DNA from: Vermamoeba vermiformis
Taxonomy: Eukaryota
Assembly (NCBI GenBank): GCA_045837725.1
Contig: JBEWZL010000132.1
Location: 248,001-306,436 of the forward strand
Length of the DNA: 58,436 nucleotides
Direction of reading: 5' to 3'
In this document: in pieces, positions 17,117-55,400 of the stretch
Numbering within the stretch: position 1 is the stretch's first letter
How the letters are laid out: the number at the start of each line of letters is the position of its first letter
Made by a program: the position numbers and the translations under genes
Notes under the pieces: generated by a model
Told to the model about the DNA's origin: nothing
Seen by the model: only the letters and a program-made list of their open reading frames with translations
The model's database searches: none

Positions 17117-19689
17117 TTATTTGCCGAGCAACTTGGCAGCAGCTTCAGCAACACGTTCGGGGTTGAAACCGAACTTCTTGTGCAATTCCTTCAAAGGAGC
17201 GCTAGCACCGAATGAGCTCATGCCGATGGAGACACCCTTGAGGCCAACGAAGCGTTCCCAGCCGAGAGTTGAACCCTTCTCAACGCTGACACGAGCAGTG
17301 ACGTTGGGAGGCAAGACAGAGTCCTTGTACTCTTGGGATTGCTTCTCGTAGAGCTCCCAAGAGGGCAAACTGACAACGCGGGCCTTGATGCCCTTGGCCT
17401 TCAACAAGTCAAAGGCGTCAGTGCACAAGTGGACCTCACTGCCGGTACCAATCAAAATGACTTCGGGTTGGTGATCCTCGCAGTCAATCAACACGTAGCC
17501 ACCCTTGGCCAAACCGCTGGCAGGGGCGTACTTGGTTCTGTCGAGGGTGGGCAAGTCTTGACGAGTGAGCACGATAACGCTGGGCTCGTGGTGGTGTTGC
17601 AACATAACTGAAGAGGAACATTAGTTTCAAGTAATACGTAGTACTACGTAAGGCATTCGAAACTTACCCTTCCAGGCCTCAACGACTTCATTGGCATCGC
17701 AAGGACGCAAAGTGACGAGGTTGGGGATGGAGCGCAACGACAACAATTGTTCGACAGGTTGATGGGTGGGACCGTCCTCTCCGACGTCAATGGAGTCGTG
17801 AGTGAAGACGTGAATGACGGGGATTTCCATGATGGCAGCCAAACGAATACCAGCCTTGGCGTAGTCGCTGAAGATCAAGAAACCAGAGCCAAAGGGGCGG
17901 ACCTTGCAGAGGGCCATACCGTTCATGACGGAGGCCATAGCGTGCTCACGAACACCAAAGTGGAAGTTGCGGCCAGCAAAGTTCTTGGCACTGAAGTCAC
18001 CAGCACCTTCAAAGGTGAGACGAGTCTTGGTCGAGGGAGCCAAGTCAGCAGAGCCACCAATGAGCCAAGGGATGTTCTTGGCAAAGGCGTTCAAGACGGT
18101 ACCAGAGGAGACACGGGAAGCAATAGCCTTGCCAGCAGGGAATTCAGGCAAGTCCTTGTCCCAACCCTCAGGTAACTTGCGCTTTTGAATGGCAACCATC
18201 TCGGCGGCAAGTTCGGGGTATTGTTTCTTGTATTCCTCGAACAACTTGTTCCAAGACTCAACAGCGGAAGCACCACGCTTGCCGAGACCGTTGGCGAAGT
18301 GTTGAGGGACCTCAGGGGGCACCAAGAACTTGGCGTCCTCGGGCCAGCCGTAGAACTTCTTGGCGGCCTTGATTTCAGCTTCACCGAGAGGTTCACCGTG
18401 AGCGGCGTGAGAGTCTTGTTTGTTGGGAGCACCGTAGCCGATGTGGCTGTCAACGATGATCAAAGTGGGGCGATCAGTGGTGGCTTGGAAGGTCTTCAAA
18501 GCACGCTCCAAGAACTCGGTGTCGTTGGCATCAGCAACACGAGTCACGTTCCAGCCGTAGCCGACGAAGCGAGTAGCAACGTCTTCGCTGAAAGCCAAGT
18601 CAGTGTGACCTTCAATGGTGATGCGGTTGTTGTCGTAGAGCCAGCACAAGTTGTTCAGCTTCAAGTGAGCAGCAAGAGAAGCAGCTTCGCTGGAGACACC
18701 TTCCATCATGCAACCGTCACCGCACAAAGCGTAGACATTGAAATTGAACATGTCAAAGCCAGGCTTGTTGTAGCGAGTGGCCAACCACTTGGAGGAGATG
18801 GCCATACCAACAGAGTTGGCGAGACCTTGGCCGAGAGGACCGGTAGTGGTCTCAATGCCTGAGGTCCAGCGGTACTCGGGGTGACCAGGGCAGCGACTGT
18901 CGATTTGACGGAATCGCTTAATGTCTTCAAGAGGCACTGACAATTGACCCTGCGGATGTTACACGCTCGTTAAAAAAAAATTCGATCGTGTAATTACGCA
19001 TTGTAAAATACTTACCAAAACTTCGTATTGAGGGTTAACAGCCTTGACTTGAGCCAAGTGCAAAAGCGAGTAGATCAACATAGAAGCGTGACCGATCGAG
19101 AGCACGAAACGATCTCTGTTGGGCCAGATAGGGTGCTCGGGATCATAGCGCAAAAACTTTTGCCAGATAGTGAAGGCAACAGGAGCCATGGCCATAGGAG
19201 TACCTGCACAATTGGACGTTACAATTTGTGGCAAGAAATTCGTAATTTCATTTTTGCGATTGATCTCCAACTCTAATAAAAGTTCGAGATAACGACAAAA
19301 TATAAAGAAAATAATGCAGTGTTAATTTTATGGATTAATTAGGAAAATATTTCGACGACGATCTGAAAACTCACCAGGATGACCAGAGTTGGCAGCCTAT
19401 TGAAAAGGTTCATTAGTAAGGTGATTAGGGTATTAAAATTATGGGTAGTAATTTTAAAGTCTATTTTCAGCCAATAGAAAAGATTCCACGCTTGATTTTT
19501 ATGGAAAGTTCTAGACGGATACTAGAACGAACCGTTGCAGACATGCTAGCAAGTAAGCACATCTCAAATTATGATCTACGTATATTTTACGAGTCATACC
19601 TGCACGGCGTCCATGGCCAAGGTGCGGATGGTGTTGATAGTCAATTGATCGAGCTTCTTTTGCTCTTCAGCAGCGTGTTTATCAGCCAT
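17117..19689 (-). CDS. tkt: Transketolase (bacterial-type sequence), multi-exon including a 22-nt micro-exon (AANSGHP)
   Basis: [58 protein letters not shown]. Confidence 0.95.
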
Positions 19690-22609: not shown

Positions 22610-25600
22610 CTATTCACTCTTTTCGTCAGTCTCGTGCTCATTTTCATCTTCAACCACGAGTCTCATCGTTACTTTCACGAGTGAGTCCTCGCCAATGCCG
22701 ATGTCCACAAGTTTGACCTGAGTGAATTCAGGCACCACGTCCAACACGCGCGCATATCTGCCCGAGCCTATGCGCAGCTCTACAGCCCACGCAGACGACA
22801 AGACAATGCCGAGCTCGTCCAACAAATCGCCGATGCGTGCGTTGATCTTAATGTACACTGTGTGCATGTGAAATTTCTTCTCGAACTCTTGCACGTGAAT
22901 CACTTTGAACTGCATCAATCCTTTGCACGCTGAAGCGACAATGCCGTGCGGTTTCAATCGTCCTTCTGATATGTCTGACAGCACGTTGTCGGGATTGTTT
23001 TCATTGCGTTGTGCGATGAAGATATTAATGTCCATTCGTTTCACATCGGCCGGTAGTTTCTGCGACAAAAGTCAGATCTTTGCTGGGAGAGCGAGTTAAG
23101 TAATTCGTTACATACTGTGAAATATTTGCCCAAGTAGTATCCAATCGCACTCAGAATAGCACCGAGCGAGGCCTTGGAGGTCATTTGACCACCAGCACTG
23201 GCCAACAAGGGGAAGTTGAACACGAGTACTTTGTCGTCGCCCTTCGTGATGACAGCGTCAGCGTAGTCCTTGAATCCTTCTTTCAAGAACGCTTTAGCGG
23301 CCTTGAACACATTGCCGGGACTGCCAGCTCCTGAGGCCTCTTGTCCACACACGAGCCACAGTTTGAATCGGTCATTGATCATGTCAAAGGCCTTGCAACC
23401 TCCGTACTTGGGCACAGCTTCACCCTGCTTGCCTGACAATCGATCTAATTCACCCAACTTCTTCACGGCATATCTCAATAGTGTTACTAGTGTTTGCGTG
23501 CCGTAGACTTCGGTCAGGGTGTATAGATCATCACCGACTTTAGTCAATCCAATTGACGAGGCAACTGTTAAACTAATTGTTAGGACACCAAATAATAGTT
23601 ATTCAGAAAGAGACTCACCGTGTCCTCGAATAGCAAGTGGGTCCATAAACTCGTTCCTTATAATTAGTCTTCCGAAGTCTTCTAAGGGGATTGTAATTTT
23701 GTTGAACGGTGAGAAGTTGTGTCCGTTCAAAATATTACTCGTACGCTGAGGCAGGCCAGATGTCGGTGTTTCATTCGTGTTTGAAGGCAGAATGTAGTTC
23801 AGTTGAGGTACTGGTGCCACCCAACCCATTGCCGCTATTTCCCTAGAATAACATTAGAGCTTCGTCCTTTGTAAATCACAAGGCACTTACTTTAATGTCT
23901 TTTGCAGCAGTTCTACGCGCTTAGGGAACGGCAAGGTAGGGTCGAAGTTGATCGTGTGAATGTTGTAGTTGATCTGCAAGTGCTGCACACGTGTTGGAGC
24001 GACTTCATCAGGTGTGAGCCAAAAGTGCGGTCCAATGCCACCACCGAGACCTTCAGACACTTCATCGAGAATGCCCAACAAGTCACGATCTCTGAGTGAT
24101 GTGCCGATGAAGAAGAAGCTGTACTCCGATGAAAGCTGTCGCAGCAATTCATTCAGTGAAATATCTTTGACCATGATAGCACGATAATCCGCGTGACTCA
24201 ACACGAGTTCCTTCTTCCCACGTGGTGTGAAATCTCCGTGAAGTTTGAGTAACATTGGTGGTCTGCGCATTGACTTCAATTCAGCGTAGAACAAGTGCAC
24301 GTCCTCTCTAAATCTGACTGGGAGATGAGTGCCTTCACGCTTGGCCATGCGATTGGACTTGGAGTATGCAGGACTGGCGTAGGCCTGTTCGAGCATGGTG
24401 TCCCAGTTCGTGGTCAATACAGCGGGCCACGGACCAGTGACGAGAGGTTGAAGTTCAGCCAAGACACGCTGCATCACTGAGCGGTGATTGGCTTCAACTC
24501 TATCAATGGCACTCTTCTCGGTCTCTATGAACTTCTTTTCAATGCAGCTCCACATGTTCTTGCCTTGTTGCTTCAACTTTGCAGCACCAAACTGTGCCAA
24601 CACCGTCAAGTCCTCGCTGTTGCGCGCCTTGTCGTACTCGTCTAACTTGCCTGCTTCTTCCCACAACAACTTGACAACGCCTTCCCATCCTCCGTAGCTA
24701 ATATTAAGAGTTATTAAGTATATGTTACAATTAGTAACGTGACCTACATGCTCCAAGTGACACCAGCGCCGACCCAAGGAATGACACGTCGTTTAGCGAG
24801 TCGATTGATGAGTGCTTCGCGAATGCTGGAAGAAGCAAGTGACTGGTCCAGACCACTCTCACCGTCGCCGAGAATAGATCTGTATTTGAGCTGCGGTGGT
24901 GACGGTGTGGAGCGAGGAGGTTTTGGACTGTCTGGTACGATCGGCGGCAAAAATTTGTTGGGCACAGGCGTTGGTCTCGTTGTAGAAGGCAAGCCCGAGG
25001 ACGGAATGAATATCACCCCGTCGTCTGATGCGCTCATCTTGCTCGGCAAAGTCTTTGATGGCGCTACAAAAATAAGAACGTTAACCACCAATTTAATTTT
25101 TGCTACAAGATCAGCTCAAAAAAAATTAAATCGCCGATTGAGTCATAAGCTGGTCATATCAACGTGAGCCGAAAGATTAGCAGTCTTAGGCTTTAGTTGA
25201 TTATGCGCAGTACATCGAAGTGTGCTACCGTTACACCACAGGACCGTAGGCCCTGCCAGGAGTCGAACCTGGACCTCTCGAGTGAGAGTCGAGAGATGTA
25301 CGCGCAGAGAACCAGCTCGTGCAGACATGAGAGCGGCGCAAGGTGGTCGTGCGCGTTTAAGGAGGTCGTTTAAAAGTTAGATCGCAGCTGCGATCGGCCG
25401 AAGACCCAAAATTTAATATAATAATACTTCGTCAAGATACAATAGCTATTGTACCATTATTTTGAGCTGTCGGTTCGAAACAATTTACAGCAATAAAAAT
25501 TCAAATTTACCTTTCAACAGCGATTTGGCTTTTGGCAAGCTTCCCTAAATAAATACAATATTTAAGGATTTGTTGTATATAAAGAGGCAGTTCAATTTAC

Positions 25601-25747
25601 CCATGAAACTTTCAAGACTTTTTGTGGATTCGATTTCAGTTCGCGTCTTGATTTTGATGCATCACCACTCGGGCGATTAAAGAACACTACTACTATAGCA
25701 ATAATAAAGCTCGCTAAAAATAATACGAGCACAACGTCAACTATCAT
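22610..25747 (-). CDS. N-terminally membrane-anchored SIR2_2-type sirtuin domain protein with macro-like and ubiquitin-like C-terminal segments
   Basis: Exon 1 25747-25601 (MIVDVVLVLFLASFIIAIVVVFFN), exon 2 25544-25511 and exon 3 from 25063 are in frame. SIR2_2 motifs: VIPWVGAGVT, VLTTNWDTMLEQAY, LLKLHGD, LVLSHADY, FFFIGTSLRDRDL. Confidence 0.8.
25118..25338 (-). ncRNA. Putative structured intronic ncRNA enclosing the permuted tRNA (nested end-pairing helices, 3' hairpin, oligo-U end)
   Basis: Helices CGCCG/CGGCG, GAGCTGGTT/GACCAGCTT and TGCGC-GTACATC/GATGTAC-T-GCGCA; hairpin 25201-25158; T8 at 25125-25118. Boundaries are approximate. Confidence 0.5.
25221..25293 (-). tRNA. Circularly permuted tRNA (anticodon CUC, nominally Glu), or a permuted tRNA-like module
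   Basis: 3' part 25293-25248: CTCGA-CTCTCAC-TCGAG AGGT CCAGG-TTCGACT-CCTGG CAGGGCC T. Spacer AC. 5' part 25245-25221: GGTCCTG TG GTGT-AACGGTA-GCAC A. Rejoined, these give a 71-nt cloverleaf with all stems paired. Confidence 0.8.
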
Positions 25748-25947
25748 TGGTGCTGATTAAATGAAATACATAATATCAATATAATAATATTAAATACAAT
25801 GCTCTTTCGTCACACTTGATTAGTGTTCGGTGGAGTCGTTCAGTTACAAAAATGGATCGCACAAACCATTCCAAGTTTATTCTGCCTCGGCTTATTTTCA
25901 TTCAACACAAACACAAAATCATTGATAGTCGTAAACAAGGATTATTA

Positions 25948-51726: not shown

Positions 51727-54700
51727 ATGAAGTATGTACTAGAATGTTCTGCGGCAAATGACGGTCCAATTAATCCGCATGCAGGTTTTACATAGATGGG
51801 CTGCTCGTGTACTTTCCATACTCGTTTATCTATCCAGAACAATATGATTATATGGTGAAGCTAAAGCAGACTCTAGACGCAAGGGTACGCTATTAATTGA
51901 AGCTAATAGATCATTTCTAGGAATTTATTACATATTTTATTCAATATTTTTCAGTAATTTTTCTGTCGCTAATTATAAACGAAGGGTTCTTGCGCTTTAG
52001 AAATGCCTACTGGTACTGGCAAAACTGTATCGCTATTATCCTTAATTATATCGTATCAAACGCAATACGAACAAACTGGCAAGTTGATCTATTGTTGCAG
52101 AACTGTTAGCGAAGTCGAAAAAACAGTGGAAGAGCTGCGTAGAGTCCTAGCAGTACGTCGTAGCAAATAATACCATATTAATATTATAATCAGTATGCTT
52201 ACAACCGATTTGTCATTAGTATCGCGATTCTGAGATGGGCGTCGCGGCCCCAAAAACATTTGCCGTAGCGCTCAGTGCGAGGAAAAATTTGTGCGTAAAT
52301 GCTAAAGTAAGGATAAGTGATAATATATAGGTCTGCTTGAGCAAGTATTAATATTTTTGTAAGGTTGTTGATGAACGACGTAGAACGGGAGTGGATGCGC
52401 GATGTCAAGACATGACAGCGACTTGGCGACGAGAGCAGCATGCTATTAACCCTGAAATAGAGCTATGCGAATATTATGAGGTACGCTAGACCTGATCCAC
52501 AAGATCCGCTTTGGATTCGAAATTAATTTTTGATTGTAGGGCTTTCAAGAACGAGGATTAGAACTTAAATTGAATGGAGTATATTCATTGGATGATTTGA
52601 AGGATTTTGGCCGAAAGAACCAGATCTGTCCTTATTTTTATGCTCGTCACAGCATCAACTTCGCCAACGTGGTTATTTATAGTTATCAATACATGCTCAA
52701 CCCTAGAATCTCTGATTTAGTATCAGCACAATTCAAAAAAGATTGCATCGTCGTGTTTGACGAAGCTCATAACATTGGTACGGTCTCGCGATCCACATCC
52801 GAAAATTGATCTCGTTACTAATAGTTTGTTTTGATAGATAACGTGTGCATAGATGCGCTTAGTGTAAATATTGATAAGCAAATCCTCGAGACTGGTTCCA
52901 GGAATTTGAGTGCATTAGGCAATAATGTTAGCCGCTTAAAAACAGTGGATGCACAGCGATTGCAGGAAGAATATCAACGATTAGTATCAGGTGTGTTAAT
53001 AATAACCTATTATACTTTATATTAATAGATTTATAGGCTTAGCACAGAATCCCTTAGTTAGAATGACAGATACAATTCGACCGGATCCAGGTACGAGAGA
53101 CATATACAACCAATTACACAAATTTATATTAATGAAATTTCATAGTTTTGCCTGAGGATGTTGCGCGAGAGGCCGTGCCAGAGAATATCCACAAAGCAGA
53201 GGAGTTTTTACGCGTGCTGAGAAATTTGCTGGAGTTCTTAAGGGGACGACTGCGCATGCGACAAGTGACTTCTGAGACACCGGCACAAATGCTCAAATCA
53301 CTCACAGAGGCCACTCAAATCGATGCTAAGACACTAAGGTACCGAACTTAGCCTTATAATTATTTCTAGCTGTATTAATCACGTGCCTTAGATTTTGCAC
53401 GTCACGTCTGAACTCGTTGATGAAGACACTGCAGCTCACAGAAATGGATAAATATACGTCGATTGGTATTATATGCGACTTCTTCACCATGCTGGGCACG
53501 TACAACGATGGATTTGTGTTGATTATGGAGCCTTATGACGAACGAAATCCAACCGTGCACGACCCTGTCTTGCAGTTCAGGTACCTCACATCAATATACT
53601 TATAATAGTACGGACATATTAACACTATGATCTAGTTGCCTCGACGCGTCACTAGCATGGAAGCCTGTGATTACAAAGTACGGCAGAGTCGTGATCACAT
53701 CGGGTACATTGAGTCCGTTGGACATGTTGCCGAGAATCTTGGGATATCAAGCCTCATTGACCGCGAGACTGCCCATCTCACTTATTAGGTACGCGATATG
53801 TCTATTCATATGATATTAATAATTGACACGTCTTACTAGACCTTGTATTTGCCCCATGGTCGTGACACGAGGCAGTGACCAAACTATTTTGTCGACAAAG
53901 TTCGAGTCGAGAGACAATCCAGATATCATTCGTAATTACGGCCAGTTGCTCTTACAGTAAGTTATTATTGCTCCATTATCACGTCCAAACAAAATTCACC
54001 TTCACGTCTCGCCTTCAGAACTGCGCAAGTTGTACCTGATGGCATTGTAGCTTTCTTCACATCTTATACTTATATGGAAGGTAAGTCAGAAGTATATCAA
54101 TATAAATGATTAATTATATGAATAGCAACGGTATCGATGTGGAATGAAATGGGCATTCTGAATCAGTTGTTGAAGTACAAATTACTCTTCGTCGAGACAT
54201 CAGACTTTGCCGAGACTAGTTTAGCATTGGACAACTATAGAAAGGCTTGCGATAGTGGTCGCGGTACGTAATTACACTTTCCTTATTAGGCAAATGCTTA
54301 GTATCAAACGCAGGTGCAATTTTCTTATCTGTGGCTCGTGGCAAGGTCTCTGAAGGAATTGACTTTGACAATCACTATGGCCGCTGCGTATTATTGTTTG
54401 GCATTCCTTTCGTGTACACTGAGAGCAAGATTCTCAAGGTAAGTTACACTCACTTTGACACGTGTCAACTAGCCACCTGTAATCTATACGTATTCTTCTT
54501 TGCTTTAATATTCACGGCGGCGACAATATTAATTGACACGTGTCACTTGTATTGACACTTGAACAATAGGCTCGCTTGGAGTACTTGCGAAACAAGTTCC
54601 AAATCAAAGAAAACGAGTTCTTGACATTCGATGCGATGCGCAACGCAGGTCAGTGCGTCGGTCGTGTCATTCGTGGCAAGACAGACTACGGCATTATGAT

Positions 54701-55243: not shown

Positions 55244-55400
55244 TTATATACCCGGTAGTACTACCGGCGGTAACAGTAATTATAATAACAACAATAGCAA
55301 CACTAATACGAGATCCAATAACAATAATAATAATGATTACGAACAAATGGAACTTATCGACGATGATGAGTAATAAATAAGAGCGAGAATATAGTGATGT

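Follow-up and report, generated by a model that had tools for sequence, protein, structure and literature searches.

In a stretch of 58,436 nucleotides (nt) of contig JBEWZL010000132.1 from the Vermamoeba vermiformis assembly GCA_045837725.1 (positions 248,001 to 306,436; this whole stretch is hereafter called the window, and positions are counted from its first letter), the minus strand carries, at 25306-25204, a back-to-front sequence of a glutamate transfer RNA (tRNA), tRNA-Glu(CUC), in which the part that extends from the anticodon arm to the 3' acceptor end precedes the part with the 5' acceptor strand and the D arm. Spliceosomal introns, together with DDX10, UCH and WD40 genes of eukaryote type, mark the window as eukaryotic, and the element plausibly sits, as judged from the reading frames around it, inside an intron of a SIR2-like gene. 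The parts of the element and the features that surround it are listed in Table 1. All the coordinates of the permuted tRNA that had been given in an earlier note on this DNA were re-read on the minus strand, of which 24900-25700 was covered, and are exact.

Table 1. The back-to-front tRNA-Glu(CUC) element and the features around it, in window coordinates.
Feature	Position	Strand	Remarks
Leader strand of the clamp helix	25306-25295	minus	TGCGCGTACATC; stops 1 nt short of tRNA position 27; no change in the variant contig
tRNA positions 27-73	25293-25248	minus	anticodon arm, 4-nt variable loop, T arm, 3' acceptor strand, discriminator T
Intervening AC between the 3' and 5' acceptor ends	25247-25246	minus	two bases; TC in the variant contig
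tRNA positions 1-26	25245-25221	minus	5' acceptor strand GGTCCTG, T8 G9, D arm, A26
Trailer	25220-25204	minus	CT, TCGA, then the clamp strand GATGTAC-T-GCGCA (25216-25204)
Trailer hairpin	25205-25155	minus	-14.1 kcal/mol, z -3.9; equalled by none of 200 shuffles
T8 run, possible RNA polymerase III stop	25125-25118	minus	95 nt past the 5' part
Shared multi-copy block, about 290 bases	about 25397-25105	minus	delimited by depth and contig departures in DNA run X1; ends blurred, similarity fades
Putative 447-nt GT..AG intron of the SIR2-like gene	25510-25064	minus	element lies within it in the sense orientation; junctions keep one open frame
SIR2_2-domain gene body	23887-25063	minus	Pfam PF13289, E 4e-22, in the open reading frame (ORF) 23887-24792
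50-nt GT..AG intron, read-verified	24747-24698	minus	joint 24697>24748 in 1 read of RNA run X21 and 4 reads of RNA run X23

The first part of the unit comprises the anticodon arm CTCGA / CTCTCAC / TCGAG, with the anticodon CTC at 25286-25284, the T arm CCAGG / TTCGACT / CCTGG, inside which lies the B-box-like GGTTCGACTCC, and the 3' acceptor strand CAGGGCC, which is followed by the discriminator; the D arm of the second part reads GTGT / AACGGTA / GCAC, and CCA is not encoded. Because the CT of the trailer repeats positions 27-28, CT flanks the break on either side and leaves three possible places for it, 26/27, 27/28 and 28/29; the TCGA that follows in the trailer repeats positions 28-31. When the two halves were joined by script at each possible break, all three choices gave one identical sequence of 71 nt, for which ARAGORN draws a tRNA-Glu(ctc) with stems of 7, 4, 5 and 5 base pairs (bp) and no mismatches. 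All 21 pairs of this swapped tRNA are standard, and the 11 invariant bases that were checked, namely, T8, A14, G18 G19, T33, G53 T54 T55 C56, A58 and C61, are all present; the pairs T11-A24 and T13-G22 and the lack of residue 47 are traits of the Glu type. The earlier note had read the locus as a circularly permuted tRNA with an ambiguous break, from 26/27 to 28/29, and had proposed the in silico swap of the halves as a check; the flawless cloverleaf obtained, the same for every placement of the break, bears out both claims.

In the unswapped window, the sole ARAGORN call is a 66-nt 'tRNA-Glu' at 25248-25313 that consists of the true 3' part and a poor 5' strand borrowed from the leader, and the Rfam score of this collinear reading is 27.0 bits, compared with a gathering score of 29 for tRNA. 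Vestiges of a tandem duplication were sought in the flanks: the match between the upstream flank and the 5' part was equalled by 1981 of 2000 shuffles, and that between the downstream flank and the 3' part by 331 of 2000. The borrowed strand, GGTTCTC, which serves as the collinear 5' strand in both ARAGORN and Infernal, is not supported by these shuffles as a decayed acceptor strand. Across the 58-kb window, Rfam yielded no match at the gathering level, ARAGORN no other tRNA and blastn no second copy of the element; among other known RNAs, Rfam gave three weak matches within 25100-25420, with no ribozyme and no small nucleolar RNA. Both strands of the window were also scanned for the permuted layout as such, in which a T arm and an acceptor strand are followed, after a short gap, by the complementary strand and a D arm; the single match is the locus described here.

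The flanks of the unit pair with each other. The leader strand and the distal part of the trailer form a helix of 12 bp (7 + 5), referred to here as the clamp, and in the RNAfold structure of 25312-25198, with a predicted energy of -44.7 kcal/mol (z -3.4; equalled by none of 200 shuffles), the clamp closes four arms, namely, the anticodon arm, the T arm, a closed acceptor hairpin and the D arm. The acceptor hairpin has 7 bp and a 3-nt loop, which is made up of T73 and the intervening AC. Not one of 5000 shuffles reached the energy of the flank duplex alone, -21.2 kcal/mol; among 16,660 pairs of real 25-mers taken from the window at equal spacing, 21 did. The pairing of the flanks that the earlier note had described is thus confirmed, the clamp being part of the minimum-free-energy fold of this segment and rare by two controls. 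In a fold of a longer context, of 276 nt, the T arm and the acceptor hairpin persist and the anticodon arm becomes a longer stem of 9 bp that recruits leader bases; the D arm and the clamp are not formed there, because the clamp competes with other pairings.

Downstream of the clamp lies the trailer hairpin, which matches no Rfam family and is identical over 25157-25202 in the variant contig described below. The T8 run further downstream is the only run of at least four T on the minus strand between 25371 and 25118, and 5 to 10 T are found at this site in all four available sequences, that is, the window, two contigs of the DNA run X1 and one contig of the metagenome run X5.

A second back-to-front version of the tRNA and a multi-copy block around it are new findings at this locus. 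A contig of 181 nt, independently assembled by Logan from the public run X1, which carries 0.91 of the sampled window words, spans 25157-25341 and differs from the window by 6 substitutions and 3 insertions or deletions. The permuted order is kept in this contig, and for this reason an assembly chimera is rejected. The variant tRNA, rebuilt from the difference table of the single contig, has 7 of its 71 letters changed, namely, position 16, positions 35-38 (TCAC to CTGA), position 59 and A67>G, the last of which retains pairing as T-G; in addition, the trailer lacks the four bases TCGA. All 21 pairs and all 11 invariant bases are kept, and the swapped variant gives a full ARAGORN cloverleaf, this time named Arg(cct), with a 7-nt anticodon loop that reads CCU and has T33 and a purine (G) at position 37. 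Over 200,000 trials, seven random substitutions preserved both the cloverleaf and the invariant bases in 0.15%, and four did so in 2.3%, the figure that applies if the patch in the loop is one event. With the proviso that they come from one contig, these fold-sparing changes are the best evidence for a past constraint on the fold.

The summed contig depth in X1 is 370-440 in the unique flanks and 644-1954 over 25133-25378, that is, up to about 5 times the baseline, with the highest depth, 1954, over 25133-25173 in the region of the trailer hairpin, and four contigs depart from the window sequence, at 25121, 25126, 25384 and 25389. The raised depth and the departing contigs indicate that the shared block has several copies. 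The foreign flanks of the other copies resemble one another and, more loosely, the window's own flanks, and the copies could be paralogous or allelic introns, or else dispersed copies. None of the X1 contigs placed on the window has its exact tRNA version, and the variant alone covers 25215-25296; however, Logan contigs drop minority variants and some records, so the lack of the window version in this run proves nothing. The metagenome run X5 covers only 24600-24648 and 24873-25209 and ends short of the tRNA. Separately, X1 contains a second version of the surrounding sequence, 3-6% diverged, at 24741-24804 and 25364-25498, at about one third of the depth (179/485 and 124/367); it may represent either a close paralogue or a haplotype that has diverged and is present at a 2:1 dosage. 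Exact-pattern scans of wider collections gave no match to a permuted junction pattern that fits both versions (metagenome contigs), to the 3' part of the window version alone (metagenome contigs and viral contigs) or to the T arm with the acceptor strand (prokaryote genome contigs and viral contigs), and a search of genome contigs guided by the SIR2-like protein P0253 produced 102 pattern matches, none of which was confirmed.

As regards the host gene, an exon model with one exon ending at 25601, one at 25544-25511 and one starting at 25063 maintains a single open frame through all junctions and gives the protein a hydrophobic N-terminus. The putative intron is about 9 times as long as the introns of 46 and 53 nt that were measured in the window by comparison with a 95%-identical relative of DDX10, and the shared block would account for most of this excess. 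The 447-nt intron posited in the earlier note thus has in its favor the open frame across the junctions and stands as unusually long; its splice was not seen in reads, the RNA depth there being zero. The RNA runs X21 and X23 contributed 20 and 26 placed reads, respectively, 43 of the 46 only 90-95% alike to the window; these reads lie on 24600-24886, with a few on 25584-25747, and the depth is zero over 24887-25583. Both are ordinary complementary DNA libraries from a diverged strain, and a zero depth in them says nothing either way on small RNA. If there is no intron, the element lies about 185 nt upstream of the ATG at 25037. The relatives of the SIR2-like protein form a cluster of 92-98% identical proteins on several public contigs. 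The SIR2_2-domain protein (23887-25756, minus strand) may have an N-terminal membrane helix, and the likeness of only 90-95% seen in most RNA reads that bear the same species label suggests a species complex or a gene family.

The review of Soma (2014; PMC3978253) counts 34 permuted tRNA genes in six algae and one archaeon and gives junctions at 15/16, 20/21, 37/38, 50/51 and 59/60, intervening sequences of 1-74 nt with a eukaryotic minimum of 5 (its Table 1), a TATA-like tract at most 50 bp upstream, a T stretch downstream and a circular intermediate; according to the same review, the bulge-helix-bulge (BHB) motif is the feature that dominates recognition and is found, in a strict or relaxed form, at every known junction. 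The eukaryotic exceptions cited in a review of 2026 are still only unicellular algae, in line with the eukaryotic distribution given in the earlier note, and a full-text literature search returned six papers, none of which, judged by title, concerns an amoebozoan case.

With the nuclear genes of this permuted kind in Cyanidioschyzon merolae, Ostreococcus, Micromonas and the Bigelowiella natans nucleomorph, the element shares the order, with the 3' part first and both parts on one strand, as well as a short spacer, the lack of CCA, leader/trailer pairing beside the break, a downstream T run and a swapped product that is a normal eukaryote-type cloverleaf. Unlike the algal genes, it has a spacer of 2 nt, below the published eukaryotic minimum, and is located inside a protein-coding gene, in a putative intron, and in a multi-copy block; furthermore, the host is apparently not an alga. 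The permuted tRNA-iMet and tRNA-Tyr genes of the archaeon Thermofilum pendens likewise share the permuted order and a very short spacer (1 and 7 nt in the published account), but they differ in encoding CCA, in their 59/60 break with a motif of the BHB type and in being single-copy and indispensable, features not shown by this locus.

The reading that we favor, tentatively and without considering it probable, is that the sequence represents a maintained, circularly permuted, working tRNA-Glu(CUC) gene. The unit is not interrupted by any run of at least four T before the T8 run, its 2-nt spacer falls within the overall published range, CCA is absent, and it is exactly one tRNA long with no vestige of an outer half, as would be the case for a selected gene. 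Such a gene would give rise to a single transcript that comprises the leader, positions 27-73, the AC, positions 1-26 and the trailer, and that would derive either from the intron of the host gene or from a unit transcribed by polymerase III, which would begin past the TTTT at 25375-25372 and terminate at the T8 run. This RNA would fold into a complete tRNA body, with the acceptor end closed by the 3-nt loop and the 26/27 break held by the clamp. RNase P and tRNase Z would then open the acceptor end and excise the AC, CCA would be added, and positions 26 and 27 would either be joined by a route that does not involve the BHB or be left unjoined and clamped.

Several observations weigh against this reading. 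The BHB has a central helix of 4 bp with a 3-nt bulge 3' of it on each strand, and the cut falls after the second base of the bulge. An enumeration of 768 strict and relaxed forms of this geometry over the three break choices found a BHB at the break in none, the best having 2 of the 4 central pairs, which extends to relaxed geometries the earlier note's failure to fit a canonical BHB. The known maturation route therefore does not fit, and the locus, unlike the algal genes, having no BHB of any form, cannot be filed with the algal and archaeal permuted tRNA genes, only as possibly similar to them in its working. By eye, neither GT/AG signals for back-splicing nor an Ire1-type loop motif was found at the break. 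The break itself, unlike those published, falls at the boundary between the D stem and the anticodon stem (26/27 to 28/29). As for expression, the B box precedes the A box and, again unlike the algal genes, there is no TATA-like tract within 50 bp upstream of the element; of the AT-rich words upstream, TTTTAAA is closest, at a distance of about 76-82 nt, followed by the tract at 25412-25425, at about 120 nt. The latter, which the earlier note had suggested as a TATA-like tract, is not supported in this role, being that distant, outside the shared block and variable in the second haplotype (or close paralogue). In the tRNA body, the discriminator T73 would be unusual for a eukaryotic tRNA-Glu, and the combination of a CCU anticodon and G37 with a Glu-type body in the variant would be odd for a decoding tRNA and would better fit a constraint on the fold only. 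Moreover, the 94 flank bases of the variant contig (46 and 48) beyond the tRNA and the TCGA gap show 1 substitution or none relative to the window, compared with 7 changes among the 71 letters of the tRNA, so that the flanks are more alike than the tRNA itself, the reverse of ordinary tRNA gene families. The second version, finally, is known from the difference table of one contig and may be either an allele or a paralogue.

The more far-reaching claim, that a back-to-front gene gives a heterotrophic protist a working tRNA with no recourse to BHB splicing, is, in our estimate, unlikely. Two ways in which this might happen can be outlined. A nuclease and a ligase, as a pair of a kind not known, might act at the clamp helix; alternatively, after the action of RNase P and tRNase Z, two unjoined pieces might be held together by the acceptor stem and the 12-bp clamp, which in this unjoined form would project near the site of the long variable arm of class II tRNAs. 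The copy with the CCU anticodon would then be a sister gene with a changed codon. The two-piece permuted transfer-messenger RNA and the permuted ribosomal RNAs offer a parallel in that the product could work as two paired pieces without ligation, a fallback should 26 and 27 not be joined. Those RNAs are bacterial or organellar and are not tRNAs, and we know of no two-piece cytoplasmic tRNA of this kind.

One alternative to a working gene that we regard as possible, if doubtful, is that the element is a non-decoding, tRNA-shaped RNA module, the block being kept for its fold and not for the anticodon. The leader-trailer stem would then anchor, within a longer RNA, a tRNA-like body whose acceptor end is closed, and the joining of 26 and 27 would not be needed; such a module could be a cutting signal for RNase P and tRNase Z or a protein-binding tRNA mimic like the bacterial YrlA or like mascRNA. 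In agreement with this, the fold is kept between the two versions although 4 of the 7 letters of the anticodon loop differ, the lack of a BHB means that there is no known joining route, the trailer contains a second conserved hairpin, and what is common to the copies is the whole block of about 290 bases, not the tRNA alone. The YrlA model (RF02553) aligns its T arm, closed acceptor hairpin and D arm in the same order as in this element, though with a score of only 24.4 bits versus a gathering score of 69; for mascRNA/menRNA (RF01684), the score is 18.5 bits versus 42.5. In both of these families, as here, the tRNA-shaped module is part of a longer RNA, but, unlike this element, YrlA is bacterial or phage-encoded and has no anticodon arm, and mascRNA is collinear. 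Furthermore, both versions at this locus keep the 7-nt loop, T33 and the purine at 37, invariants related to decoding that a mimic need not retain. Rfam has no such eukaryotic family (no match at the gathering level and the three weak ones mentioned above), and we can name no eukaryotic precedent, partner protein or function.

It might also be, although here too we have considerable doubt, that the element is a dead relic, that is, a slightly over-unit copy of tRNA-Glu that landed in a pre-existing palindrome of the intron, was duplicated together with the gene and is inert. The source could be a tandem dimer or reverse transcription round a circularised tRNA. The trailer repeats positions 27-31 (CT-TCGA), which is the terminal redundancy expected of an over-unit copy, and the lack of a BHB, the lack of a promoter in the usual place and the odd anticodon of the second version are in keeping with an inert sequence. 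Models of this kind, reverse transcription of a circular pre-tRNA among them, are listed as proposed origins of permuted tRNA genes (PMC3978253). Perfect palindromes of at least 14 nt are enriched in the window (17, versus 1-6 in 20 shuffles), and two palindromes of 16 nt lie in the same putative intron, which makes a palindromic landing site credible; the clamp may accordingly have begun as an old palindrome that the insertion split, in which case its origin could be neutral. An inert relic, however, would not be expected to spare every pair and every invariant base in seven changed letters, an outcome with the chance frequencies given above for seven substitutions or for four events, nor would it account for a block that is more conserved than the rest of the intron. 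The spacer, moreover, is AC and not CCA, so the template was not a mature tRNA.

We consider it quite improbable that the locus is a mobile element of the short interspersed element (SINE) or miniature inverted-repeat transposable element type, with a tRNA-derived core, that has spread to several sites including the putative intron. Such an element would be multi-copy, as the depth of about 5 times the baseline and the contigs that leave the window sequence at both ends of the block indicate, would explain the roughly ninefold length of the intron and could end in a T run. Yet the foreign flanks of the copies are alike and partly like those of the window, as in paralogous or allelic introns, the inverted repeat lies within the block, some 90 nt in from each of its ends, the reversed order of the boxes cannot serve as a SINE promoter, and there is no second copy in the 58 kb. 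On these grounds the locus does not pass as a tRNA-derived SINE, which would have an A box before the B box, many dispersed copies and target-site duplications; no such duplications could be defined. An assembly or sequencing artefact is scarcely credible: the only point in its favor, that no X1 contig placed on the window has its exact tRNA version and that the variant alone covers this place, is offset by the losses known for Logan contigs, and the whole unit, at about 75 nt, is shorter than a read and recurs in the same order in an independently assembled contig.

Several other observations in the window may be recorded. Palindromes of at least 14 nt are found, for example, at 25380-25395, 25438-25453, 17635-17650 and 55252-55267, many of them centred on GTAC, GATC or CACGTG, and one of them, TTGACACGTGTCAA at 54455-54468, is similar to the foreign sequence that flanks other copies of the tRNA block in X1. 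A transketolase ORF at 17627-18958 on the minus strand, extending to about 19228, is long and uninterrupted among intron-bearing eukaryotic genes. The proteins that match it best, at about 70% identity, come mostly from metagenomes, and many of these matches have further sugar-metabolism domains fused to them; the few named ones are from bacteria (Rokubacteria, Rhizobium) and dinoflagellates; as far as these matches can tell, the gene may be of bacterial origin in this protist. The named matches of DDX10, at 52-65% identity, include assemblies labelled as fish and nematode, Acanthamoeba and green algae, with close relatives at 79-95%, a scatter that does not confirm an amoebozoan host.

A single enzyme system, in which the tRNA splicing endonuclease acts on the BHB, accounts for the existence of permuted tRNA genes. 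These genes are rare, as the count of 34 in six algae and one archaeon illustrates (PMC3978253), and a maintained permuted tRNA outside the algae, with a new break and no BHB, would widen their known distribution. If a gene of this kind truly works without a BHB, it would imply either that there is a second route of maturation or that a cytoplasmic tRNA can consist of two pieces. Should the element be conserved for its fold only, it would be a eukaryotic counterpart of the bacterial tRNA mimics, and a relic that retains a terminal redundancy would be a rare fossil of the origin model in which a circular tRNA is reverse-transcribed.

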